From the IMG/VR virus record IMGVR_UViG_2703718835_000005: 3,888 nt of DNA; one strand, written 5' to 3'. Within the stretch, counting starts at the first letter, position 1. Each line of letters starts with the position of its first letter. Position numbers and translations under genes: made by a program. Shown one piece after another: positions 1,221 through 2,886 of this stretch. A model generated the notes under the pieces. It was not told the DNA's origin. It saw nothing but the letters and a program-made list of their open reading frames with translations, and ran no database searches. The DNA comes from a virus. Taxonomy: Duplodnaviria; Heunggongvirae; Uroviricota; Caudoviricetes.

Positions 1221-1412
1221 TTATCGTGAGTTTTTAGTACAGATTTTTTTGGATTTACTAATAGTTCCATCATTGCAAACGAATTTGCCATCTGAGGTAC
1301 AGTGAGAAACACCTCCCTTTTTCCCTGAGCAGGGATAATTTCTAGCATAGGTAGCTAGTGGGTTTAATAACAAAGAACATGACAAAACCACAAAAAATAC
1401 CTTACCAAGCAT
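1221..1412 (-). CDS. Small secreted cysteine-rich protein (63-aa precursor; predicted signal peptide, ~40-aa basic mature peptide with 4 Cys); lysogeny-expressed moron candidate
   Basis: Seen in sequence: ATG at 1412-1410 preceded by GGGAGG (complement of 1418-1423) with a 5-nt spacer; the start is only 15 nt downstream of the cI stop, same strand. Translation [23 protein letters not shown]|[40 protein letters not shown] has a short n-region, hydrophobic core and AxA-like signal peptidase I site (TYA). Region is AT-rich (~37% GC by hand count). Function unknown. Confidence 0.6.
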
Positions 1413-1427
1413 AATTTCCTCCCGGTA

Positions 1428-1997
1428 CTATTTAACATACTTGACTGTTAAACTTATAATTTTACCAATTATTTCAATGTCTTCTATCTTGCATTCGAAG
1501 GCTCTGTTTCCACCCTCGACGAAGATTCTTCCACCGGGTAAACGAGTAATGTCACGGATCGTTATTTCGCCATCAATACTTATTACCCATTTACCATCAC
1601 GTATATCATCAAATTCCTTATCACAAATAAATTCAGAATTATTATCTGTGATTACAAAAAGATTCTTGAATGTCGACGGTAGAAATTCTCTATCGAAAAT
1701 ATAAAAACCGTCTTCACACAAGGCCCCATCAGATAATACATATTTAGCAACTTCCATAGTATTTGTATTACCTGAAGTTTGCTTTGAACCATGCCCGGTT
1801 GTGAGCCAATTAAGCGAGGTGCCTGTTTCAAGGGCGCACTGGATTACCCATTCTGCTGGGAATGAGTCACGCATGTAGCGTGTGGCGAGTGTACTTTTAG
1901 AGATTCCTAAATGATCGCACAACGCCTGTCGAGTCTTGAATCCATAAGCTTCTACCATGCGCTCTATGGCGCCTCGTCCGCCTTTCTCCAAATTCAT
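1428..1997 (-). CDS. cI: Phage 186-type CI immunity repressor (N-terminal HTH domain plus C-terminal oligomerisation domain), 189 aa from ATG at 1997-1995
   Basis: Seen in translation: N-terminal HTH-like segment (AYGFKTRQALCDHLGISKSTLATRYMRD), and a C-terminal region (IRDITRLPGGRIFVEGGNRAFECKIEDIEIIG) compatible with 186 CI architecture as I recall it. GGAG (complement of 2003-2006) lies 5 nt upstream of the ATG at 1997; the GTG at 2003 used by the ORF track would overlap that RBS. Position is divergent from the apl/cII operon and upstream of int, as in phage 186. Confidence 0.8.
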   Translation of the reverse strand: MNLEKGGRGAIERMVEAYGFKTRQALCDHLGISKSTLATRYMRDSFPAEWVIQCALETGTSLNWLTTGHGSKQTSGNTNTMEVAKYVLSDGALCEDGFYIFDREFLPSTFKNLFVITDNNSEFICDKEFDDIRDGKWVISIDGEITIRDITRLPGGRIFVEGGNRAFECKIEDIEIIGKIISLTVKYVK

Positions 1998-2021
1998 GGT
2001 CACTCCAAGTGAACTTTTATC

Positions 2022-2050
2022 TTGACGATTTCACTGTGCGATCGTATGTT
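2022..2050 (+). promoter_or_regulatory. Candidate lytic promoter pR: -35 TTGACG (2022-2027), 17-bp spacer, -10 TATGTT (2045-2050), reading rightward into apl/cII
   Basis: Seen in sequence: good -35/-10 match with optimal spacing, located in the 125-bp cI-apl intergenic region with predicted start near 2057. The face-to-face pL expected from the phage 186 model could not be placed confidently. Confidence 0.45.
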
Positions 2051-2077
2051 TATGGTGTTCACAAAATACAAACGATC
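2040..2077. promoter_or_regulatory. Imperfect 38-bp palindrome (arms GATCGTATGTTT 2040-2051 and ATACAAACGATC 2066-2077, 10/12 complementary) overlapping the pR -10 and start; candidate repressor (CI and/or Apl) operator
   Basis: Seen in sequence: dyad centred at 2058/2059; each arm starts with a GATC Dam site (2040-2043 and 2074-2077). The operator role is inferred from its position over the promoter. Confidence 0.35.
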
Positions 2078-2122
2078 CGTATTCGTCCTGATTAATCATC
2101 ATTAAACGAGGAATGTTGCATC

Positions 2123-2344
2123 ATGAGACCTAACATTTCAATCACTCTTACCACGCCTCATGTGACTATTGAACGCTATAGCGAGCTGACAGGGCTATCC
2201 ATCGATACCATCAATGACATGTTAGCTGATGGACGCCTTATCCGTCACCGTCTGCGCAAAGATAAAAAACGCGAAAAAGTGATGATCAACATAGCAGCAA
2301 TGACCGTTGATGCGCTTTCAGAATGCAATCTAAACCTTAATTAG
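2123..2344 (+). CDS. apl: Apl/Cox-like small HTH protein (excisionase and switch-repressor position of phage 186 Apl), 73 aa
   Basis: Seen in sequence: first gene of the rightward operon, divergent from cI; GAGGAA (2108-2113) lies 9 nt upstream of the ATG at 2123; translation contains an HTH-like segment ([25 protein letters not shown]) and a basic tail. Identity rests on position and size; I recall 186 Apl as longer (87 aa). Confidence 0.6.
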
Positions 2345-2376: not shown

Positions 2377-2403
2377 ATGTTTGATTACCAAGTTTCCAAA
2401 CAT
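2377..2403 (-). promoter_or_regulatory. CII-type operator: inverted repeat ATGTTTG (2377-2383) / CAAACAT (2397-2403), half-site centres 20 bp apart; candidate CII-activated establishment promoter pE reading leftward toward cI
   Basis: Seen in sequence: perfect 7-bp inverted half-sites separated by 13 bp (two helical turns centre to centre); the left half-site is the cII start codon itself (ATG TTT G). From my recollection of phage 186, CII binds ATGTTTG half-sites spaced two turns apart at pE. No good -10 is visible leftward (weak TATTTC, complement of 2354-2359), which fits an activator-dependent promoter. Confidence 0.55.
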
Positions 2404-2886
2404 CCACATTTTGATGAAGCCTGTCGTGCATTTGCACTGCGCCACAATCTGGTGCAACTGGCAGAACGTGCAGGCATGAATGTGCAGATTCTGCGGAACA
2501 AGCTGAACCCAGCTCAGCCTCATTTATTAACCGCACCAGAAATCTGGCTGCTTACCGATCTGACTGAAGATTCAACGCTGGTAGATGGTTTTCTGGCACA
2601 GATTCATTGTCTGCCATGTGTACCGATTAATGAGGTGGCAAAAGAGAAACTGCCACATTACGTCATGAGTGCAACCGCAGAGATCGGGCGTGTTGCTGCA
2701 GGTGCGGTGTCTGGCGATGTAAAAACCTGTGCCGGTCGTCGTGATGCTATCAGCAGCATTAACTCTGTAACACGACTGATGGCGCTGGCGGCTGTTTCAT
2801 TGCAGGCCCGTTTACAGGCTAATCCTGCGATGGCGAGTGCAGTTGATACCGTGACTGGCCTCGGTGCTTCATTCGGTTTGCTGTGA
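2377..2886 (+). CDS. cII: Phage 186-type CII lysogeny-establishment transcriptional activator, 169 aa from ATG at 2377
   Basis: Seen in sequence: AGAGG (2364-2368) lies 8 nt upstream of the ATG at 2377; the ORF track's TTG at 2371 is less likely. The 169-aa length matches my recollection of 186 CII; HTH-like segment [25 protein letters not shown]; gene order apl-cII as in 186. Confidence 0.8.

Follow-up and report, generated by a model that had tools for sequence, protein, structure and literature searches.

Predicted promoters, candidate CI operators and conserved GATC sites in the probable 186-type lysis-lysogeny switch of a common Escherichia coli prophage

We analyzed a stretch of 3,888 bases from a Caudoviricetes virus record (IMG/VR record IMGVR_UViG_2703718835_000005; the whole stretch is called the window here), and in particular the region between the genes cI and apl, which would hold the switch between lysogenic and lytic growth. 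Seven features were listed in the window, running from an integrase gene at its left edge to four further small genes. The genes around the switch region lie as follows.

1 (left edge of the window) to about 1035, minus strand: int, integrase
1221-1412, minus strand: orf63, an open reading frame of 63 amino acids between int and cI in the lysogenic operon; phrog_6000 (unknown function)
1428-1997, minus strand: cI, 186-type immunity repressor of 189 amino acids; PF07022 and PF16452; "phage repressor protein CI" in RefSeq
1998-2122: cI-apl intergenic region of 125 bp, with the cI start taken as the ATG at 1997 as in RefSeq
2123-2344, plus strand: apl, Cox-like excisionase/repressor of 73 amino acids, gene number one of the pR operon; phrog_575
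2377-2886, plus strand: cII, 169 amino acids; PF06892
directly after cII, plus strand: fil, homologue of 186 Fil; PF10893

The operons are divergent, with int and cI reading leftward and apl (Cox-like), cII and fil reading rightward, and the RefSeq annotation of an identical prophage agrees with this arrangement. CI matched the 186 CI helix-turn-helix domain PF07022 (E = 2.8e-33) and the C-terminal oligomerisation domain PF16452 (E = 2.5e-27) and, in PDB, the 186 CI structure 2FJR (E = 2.5e-31) and 2FKD (E = 1.8e-14), and it was 33% identical to 186 CI. Apl matched phrog_575 (E = 6e-31) with weak similarity to 186 Apl, and CII was 69% identical to 186 CII. The 186-type context that a first-pass annotation had proposed from the sequence alone is thus borne out by the CI, Apl and CII families and by the gene order, and these data suggest that the region is probably a lysis-lysogeny switch, that of a P2-like prophage of the phage-186 type whose immunity specificity is uncharacterised and whose CI, operators and looping would follow a 186-like layout. 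A P2-type switch was ruled out, because the repressor is a 186-type CI of 189 amino acids and cII is present. A link to P2 Hy dis (the prophage occurs in E. coli B, the source of Hy dis) was also rejected, because Hy dis has a P2-type C repressor (PMC1904268).

The switch region was compared with three sets of relatives: 19 loci of other species, with 65-99% identity in the N-terminal domain of CI; 80 viral contigs for each of the window type and the Fels-2-like, 813R9-like and L016-like immunity groups; and 80 loci of the 186 type. The annotated records of phage 186, Fels-2, PSP3 and vB_EcoM-813R9 were also used. Variation within the window type was followed in 80 IMG/VR loci that share one and the same CI N-terminal domain and are too alike to footprint single operators. 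Among the other relatives, the Enterobacter locus L006 has the same CI recognition helix as the window, and its linker and C-terminal domain can barely be aligned with those of the window.

The early lytic promoter and its spacer have these coordinates.

2022-2050, plus strand: pR, predicted early lytic promoter; -35 TTGACG at 2022-2027, 17-bp spacer, -10 TATGTT at 2045-2050
2034-2038: hypervariable patch in the pR spacer, multi-allelic among the 80 window-type loci

TTGACG-17-TATGTT had already been read as a rightward promoter in a cI-apl gap of 125 bp; the gap has exactly this length (1998-2122) with the RefSeq start of cI, and the promoter sequence is present at 2022-2050 with a predicted start near 2057. 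In a promoter scan of both strands of 1900-2450, pR was the sole sigma-70-like match (9/12 positions), and since the scan expects 1.4 matches by chance, the consensus match is not significant by itself. Among 76 distinct related promoters, the -35 TTGACG/A, the spacer of exactly 17 bp and the -10 TAnnnT were invariant or nearly so, and most other spacer and flanking positions of these promoter-anchored relatives varied freely. This retained skeleton is much stronger support for pR than the consensus match, and the position of pR corresponds to that of the annotated 186 pR. The hypervariable patch carries up to three alternative bases per position between near-invariant flanking positions: at 2034, C is replaced by T in 14 loci or by A in 3, and at 2035, T is replaced by C (18 loci), G (2) or A (3).

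The lysogenic promoter and the interval that separates it from pR contain the following features.

2141 to 2113, minus strand: pL, predicted lysogenic promoter; -35 TTGAAA at 2141-2136, 17-bp spacer, -10 CAACAT at 2118-2113
2078-2112: pR-pL interval, the expected place of Apl sites, with ATT-phased 10-bp repeats at 2081, 2091 and 2101
2089-2098: TGATTAATCA, a perfect 10-bp palindrome between pR and pL
2108-2112: apl ribosome-binding site GAGGA

The first-pass annotation had found no convincing leftward promoter in 2060-2160, and pL, with a predicted start near 2107, lies inside that range; both that reading and the promoter scan missed it because its -10 matches 3/6 consensus positions, a number equal to that of 186 pL. 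The 186 record gives the minus-strand sequence TTGCGA-17-CATGAT for pL, with the -10 ending 5 bases before the apl ATG and the -35 in apl codons 5-7. The -35 of the window pL also sits inside apl codons 5-7, and the register to the apl ATG is identical. In the related groups, the hexamers are TTGAAA with CAACAT, CAGTAT or CAATAT (TTGAAA-17-CAnnAT), and the codons beneath pL are always ATT-TCA-AT, despite the existence of other serine and isoleucine codons. Moreover, the pL block was the only stretch that could be aligned among the window, 186, Fels-2 and 813R9. The predicted starts of pR and pL lie face to face about 50 bp apart, and in P2-like phages the two promoter starts are 40-60 bp apart (PMC7498355).

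No polymorphism was found in 2078-2151 among the 80 window-type loci, with variable coding sequence on both sides, and the only variable position in 2061-2151 was 2077 (one locus). Such an invariant pR-pL interval fits dense regulatory content. In 186, Apl sites fill the interval equivalent to 2078-2112, as is also seen in the annotated 186 record, and sites of the Apl type consist of 6-bp direct repeats with a phasing of 10-11 bp (PMC7498355); in the window, just the weak ATT-phased repeats were seen as an Apl-like pattern in this interval. The hexamer TAATCA also occurs in the pR-pL interval of relatives with the same Apl type. A sequence related to TGATTAATCA, CGATTAATGA, lies inside cII at 2624-2633, and the corresponding cII position of L006 holds a copy at 13/14.

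Around pR, we found a palindrome and two candidate CI operators.

2040-2077: 38-bp imperfect palindrome over the pR -10 and the predicted start, 14/19 arm pairs
2057-2073, plus strand: O_down, main candidate CI operator unit, GTTCACAAAATACAAAC, in the right arm of the palindrome
2040-2058: degenerate inverted copy of the O_down unit, which completes the 38-bp palindrome with O_down
1998-2014: O_up, candidate CI operator, the 17-bp dyad GGTCAC-N5-GTGAAC; it lies between the start codon of cI and the pR -35

The first-pass annotation had described a 38-bp imperfect palindrome that overlaps pR and has GATC at both ends. Both observations hold: 14 of the 19 arm pairs at 2040-2077 match, which makes 28/38 positions self-complementary, and GATC stands at 2040 and 2074. 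A palindrome this good arose in 16 of 2000 shuffles (0.8%) of the intergenic region, and among relatives its right arm varies less than its left. O_down begins 6 bp past the pR -10, and its left half GTTCAC (2057-2062) resembles the 186 half-site ATTCAC. Relatives have palindromic operators of their own 6-8 bp after the -10, namely GGTTTG-N5-CAAACC, GTACCCAATTGGGTAC and ATTCCC-N5-GGGAAT. In L006, GTTCACAAAATACAAAC is present at pR and a second exact copy lies, inverted, 237 bp inside cI. O_up was the only site in the window with at most two mismatches from GTTCAC-N5-GTGAAC; its 6-5-6 layout is like that of the 186 sites ATTCAC-N5-GTGAAT, and its substitutions in relatives are confined to the central N5, at 2004 and 2008. 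A half-site is also found in 813R9 just upstream of its own -35.

The O_down unit had no copy near att, the expected place for Apl sites, and two 11/17 matches to it were found 22 bp apart at pB, the late-activator promoter of the prophage; thus, the palindrome was assigned to CI and not to Apl. Taken together, these data make CI operator DNA the likeliest reading of the palindrome, and its right arm would be the main site. The matches at pB give a hint that CI may control pB of this prophage type, as in 186, where pB is repressed by CI. In the locus L003 (5497-5535, the pB region of this prophage type in E. coli WL7562), both 11/17 matches are inverted and overlap an ogr/B-like late activator promoter, and the same region holds a 20-bp palindrome, AATAATGCGGTATCATTATT. 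Pieces of the switch are also resembled by C-terminal coding sequence of cI: 1539-1563 agrees with 2103-2116 in 13/14 positions and with 2071-2080, read as the reverse complement, in 10/10, GATC included. The stretch 1523-1558 was without polymorphism in the 80 window-type loci, and nearby stretches were equally quiet.

Candidate sites at a distance from pR were as follows.

1761-1777, minus strand: FL-like distal CI site, CTTCAGGTAATACAAAT on the minus strand, 12/17 to the O_down unit
1727-1743, plus strand: possible second flanking copy FL', CATCAGATAATACATAT, 11/17 to the unit
2351-2366: FR candidate, a 16-bp palindrome TCTGAAATACATCAGA at the apl-cII junction
2377-2404, plus strand: probable CII site at the start of cII and region of pE, the leftward promoter that CII activates in 186-type switches; 25/28 positions are those of the annotated 186 CII site

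The 186 model has three operators at pR, a left (FL) and a right (FR) flanking site about 300 bp away, and transcriptional interference (PMC3675496; PMC7498355). In the window alone, chance would give 1.4 matches at 12/17 or better, so that the 12/17 match at 1761-1777 is not significant, and the site is credible because relatives fix its position. At the offset of -237 from the cI start, L006 has the unit at 17/17 (inverted), L005 has a 14/17 match to its own unit, and the window has its 12/17 match; the L005 and L006 copies lie in cI sequence that is otherwise barely alignable, and an exact 17-mer in about 3 kb, as in L006, is not chance. The annotated 186 FL lies 269-285 bp inside cI. These comparisons support the view that 1761-1777 is the probable equivalent of 186 FL. 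FL', which is inverted relative to 1761-1777, centred 34 bp from it and not conserved in L005 or L006, is a weak candidate for a second flanking copy. The FR candidate stands where FR is annotated in 186 and contains the AAATACA of the operator unit; compared by hand it matches the unit at 9/17, under the scan cutoff of 11/17, is absent from the scan hits and is not conserved in L005 or L006. At the homologous place 813R9 has TTGGGATAC, which resembles the half-site of its own operator. AAATACA at 2064 and 2355, GTATTT at 1759 and seven GTATTT/AAATAC hexamers are present exactly as the earlier reading had stated. Of the distal flanking sites that it had loosely drawn from them, the left one is kept, as GTATTT at 1759 overlaps 1761-1777 with its comparative support, and the right one (2355) stays a mere candidate.

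The segment from cI to apl was found in 539 of 5426 complete E. coli genomes (about 10%; 94-100% identity, coverage of at least 80%). The E. coli B strain BLR(DE3) carries the prophage at 99.8% identity, and strain WL7562 has a complete-looking P2-like prophage adjoining rcdA, with a gene for a D12-class DNA adenine methylase between a DksA-like gene and the replication gene. A DNA comparison with 50,697 deposited phage genomes gave no similarity left of 2109, and no deposited phage had a CI more than 57% identical; in the protein comparison the best match was 56%. Since deposited phages resemble the window only from 2109 on, the part with cI, pR and the operators is an immunity module of its own, common in genomes and without a studied representative. 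At this joint, where similarity to Klebsiella and Escherichia phages begins, pL and apl move together, apart from cI, pR and the operators. A second mosaic joint lies near 1970, and some E. coli prophages share only cI 1700-1970 with the window, at 80-85% identity. The locus L007 has a window-like cI body joined to a different pR region. The neighbouring orf63 has a signal-peptide-like N-terminus, is annotated as "YdcA family" in some genomes and is absent from 186; PSP3 has another small gene at its place. It may be a cargo gene expressed in the lysogen.

Two GATC sequences, potential Dam sites, lie in the palindrome. Their positions, and the frequency of GATC at spacer positions 13-16 and of a phage dam gene in five types of loci, were as follows.

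2040-2043: GATC-1, Dam site at spacer positions 13-16 of pR (-17 to -14), separated from the -10 by one base
2074-2077: GATC-2, Dam site, the last four bases of the right arm of the palindrome
Window type: GATC at spacer 13-16 in 75/76 loci; phage dam in 74/78
Fels-2-like: GATC at spacer 13-16 in 69/73 loci; phage dam in 60/75
813R9-like: GATC at spacer 13-16 in 51/54 loci; phage dam in 42/68
L016-like: GATC at spacer 13-16 in 71/71 loci; phage dam in 67/72
186 type: GATC at spacer 13-16 in 0/66 loci; phage dam in 1/68

GATC-1 stands at this exact position in 70 of the 76 distinct promoters of the four related immunity groups, and its information content (1.7-1.9 bits per position) is equal to that of the -35 and the -10, with 0.4-0.9 bits at neighbouring spacer positions. 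It varies in 1 of the 80 window-type loci, though the five bases just upstream are multi-allelic. This conservation points to selection on the tetranucleotide. GATC-2 is kept in the window type (79/80 loci), in L005 and in L006, and not in the other immunity groups. With 17 GATC in total, where its composition predicts about 15, the window is not enriched in GATC overall. The phage dam of the four groups is D12-class, and Fels-2 itself has both the GATC and dam. In PSP3 (L424 4100-4140), a GATC abuts the -10 of a rightward TTTACA-17-TATAGT, one base closer than in the window clade; the repressor of PSP3 is a different and longer one, and a dam gene is absent.

Several observations weigh against the assignment of the palindrome and its partner sites to CI in a 186-like layout. 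No compensatory, palindrome-preserving substitutions were seen among relatives, and the O_down unit is asymmetric and not a dyad, with just its left half resembling the O_up half-site. From centre to centre, O_up and O_down are separated by 59 bp, as against the two-turn spacing of the three 186 pR operators, and a three-site array at two-turn spacing was not found at pR. In L007, the helix-turn-helix is nearly identical and the FL-like sequence is present, but pR has no clear copy of the unit. A consistent copy of the unit at the FR place was found in neither the window nor L005 nor L006, and no flanking copies of the palindromic operators of the Fels-2 and 813R9 types were found in those phages, so the FL/FR architecture is not shown to be general. 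For Apl, no motif common to 2078-2112 and the att region of the identical prophage was found; that att region has 10-bp and 20-bp repeats of its own.

Other explanations of the palindrome were weighed with these points in mind. It could be an operator of Apl or of another early protein, with CI binding only upstream over the -35 and the spacer. The annotated 186 Apl sites do run from the pR -10 to pL and cover the equivalent of the right arm (PMC7498355), and the main CI dyad of 186 is in the promoter spacer and not downstream. However, Apl-type sites are phased 6-bp direct repeats and not a 17-bp unit, the unit recurs in cI at the FL-equivalent place in three lineages and not at att, the spacer here is hypervariable, unlike an operator, and relatives have repressor-style palindromes at the same downstream position. 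We consider this explanation quite improbable. We take more seriously, though we lean against it, the possibility that the 38-bp symmetry is largely incidental, the right arm being a real operator and the left arm promoter sequence that mirrors it by chance: the left arm is more substituted than the right, with none of its changes compensatory, groups without such a palindrome also conserve the left GATC and the -10, and the FL copies of the unit are without GATC. Pulling the other way are the scarcity of equally good palindromes among the shuffles (just 0.8%) and the retention of both GATC ends in the window type, L005 and L006. Finally, a transcript from about 2107 would hold both arms, and a predicted fold pairs them, as would be expected of an RNA hairpin in the 5' leader of the pL (cI) transcript. 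The arms are A/T-rich with five mismatches, however, and the fold of -22.7 kcal/mol is no better than shuffles (mean -19.9, z = -0.94; 34 of 200 shuffles fold as well), for which reason the hairpin was rejected as extremely improbable.

The GATC sites raise the possibility that the switch is Dam-sensitive, with adenine methylation of GATC-1 and, here, of GATC-2 setting promoter activity or CI binding and with feedback from the Dam encoded in the pR operon. This is favoured by a GATC-1 that is as conserved as the -35 and -10 in 70/76 promoters amid variable neighbours, by the presence of GATC and dam in four immunity groups (Fels-2 included) and their absence or near absence from the 186 group, and by the precedent of a Dam-controlled promoter at intA of prophage ST64B, as cited in a preprint (bioRxiv 10.64898/2026.01.27.702048). 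On the other hand, the contrast in GATC and dam is one clade versus another, and the association is therefore not statistically independent. Within groups, loci that lack dam keep the GATC, and a host Dam is there in every case; PSP3, which has no dam, carries a GATC that is closer to the -10 by one base; and the GATC bases could be kept for RNA polymerase contacts alone. A literature search for Dam together with P2/186-like switches or Fels-2 gave nothing relevant, and no methylome or reporter data were found for the prophage, the methylome papers being on strains without it. We therefore regard Dam sensitivity of the switch as unlikely, and give the same low standing to the broader idea that a large 186-like clade (the E. 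coli type, Fels-2 and the Klebsiella/Citrobacter types) built adenine methylation into its switch.

The gene families, the promoter sequences with their conservation and the recurrence of the operator unit are observed, and from them we infer the protein bound at each site, the points where transcription begins, the promoter interference and the looping in the scheme proposed here. pR would drive rightward transcription of apl, cII and fil and onward to dam and A, and a weak pL overlapping the apl start would drive leftward transcription of cI, orf63 and int. Because the two promoters point at each other and their predicted starts are separated by about 50 bp, a strong pR should interfere with pL, as in 186. 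CI would bracket pR by binding O_up (1998-2014), O_down (2057-2073) and the degenerate inverted copy (2040-2058), and the distal copy in cI (1761-1777) would act as FL does in 186, with looping that aids repression and pL activity. Apl would bind the invariant pR-pL interval and damp both promoters. If methylation takes part, CI bound in the lysogen would shield GATC-1 and GATC-2 from Dam; after derepression, the Dam of the pR operon, together with host Dam, would methylate both sites, and the methylated sites would alter CI rebinding or the strength of pR. Induction would then be hard to reverse, or newly replicated genomes would be marked. A functional promoter GATC would also explain why dam is found in the early operon of so many P2/186-like phages.

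The 186 switch is among the few temperate-phage switches understood quantitatively, with its repressor wheel, DNA wrapping, distal sites and transcriptional interference. The prophage would be a natural variant of this switch with a different operator code and layout, and thus a comparison case for which features of the 186 design are essential; since it is carried by about one in ten complete E. coli genomes, laboratory B strains included, it is easily tested. The analysis extends the earlier reading by the location of a predicted pL and by the proposal of the FL-like site and of the upstream operator. The promoter GATC and its clade-level link to phage dam are the one feature that could exceed an ordinary 186-type switch.

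Compared with 186, the prophage has a CI of the same fold family, with N- and C-terminal domains that match 2FJR and 2FKD, and the same gene order of int-cI facing apl-cII-fil. The predicted promoters pR and pL are likewise face to face, and pL overlaps the apl start codon in an identical register; a 6-5-6 dyad of 17 bp adjoins the cI start, a putative distal operator copy lies in cI, and the probable CII site at the start of cII agrees at 25/28 positions. Unlike 186, the window has a CI of only 33% identity and different operator sequences, and its best candidate operator is downstream of the -10, not in the spacer. The predicted distance between the pR and pL starts is about 50 bp in the window and 62 bp in 186, the window has the extra orf63 between cI and int, and it has the GATC in the pR spacer and dam in the early operon, neither of which is present in 186.

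P2-type switches (C, Cox, Pe/Pc; Hy dis included) also have face-to-face promoters 40-60 bp apart and a Cox-like first lytic gene. P2-type C repressors are small and bind direct repeats, and the phages that carry them are without cII (PMC1904268); the window, in contrast, has a 186-type CI of 189 amino acids and cII, and its repressor is not of the Hy dis type. In the locus L002 (12245-12677), an open reading frame of 62 amino acids and a DinI-like gene downstream of the replication gene are arranged like tumA/tumB of PSP3, which suggests SOS induction through an antirepressor.

The Salmonella prophage Fels-2 and the related Klebsiella/Escherichia Peduoviridae KP12 and vB_EcoM-813R9 share with the window the promoter TTGACG/A-17-TAnnnT with GATC at spacer positions 13-16, the pL form TTGAAA-17-CAnnAT and a dam gene upstream of the replication gene, and in KP12 and 813R9 apl, cII and the downstream genes are 76-94% identical at the DNA level. 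Their CI proteins, however, are at most 57% identical to that of the window, and the operators of Fels-2 (GGTTTG-N5-CAAACC) and 813R9 (GTACCCAATTGGGTAC) differ from those of the window. Dam-dependent transcriptional switches are known at IS10 pIN, pap, agn43 and ST64B intA, and the feature in common with them is a GATC inside a promoter or regulator site.

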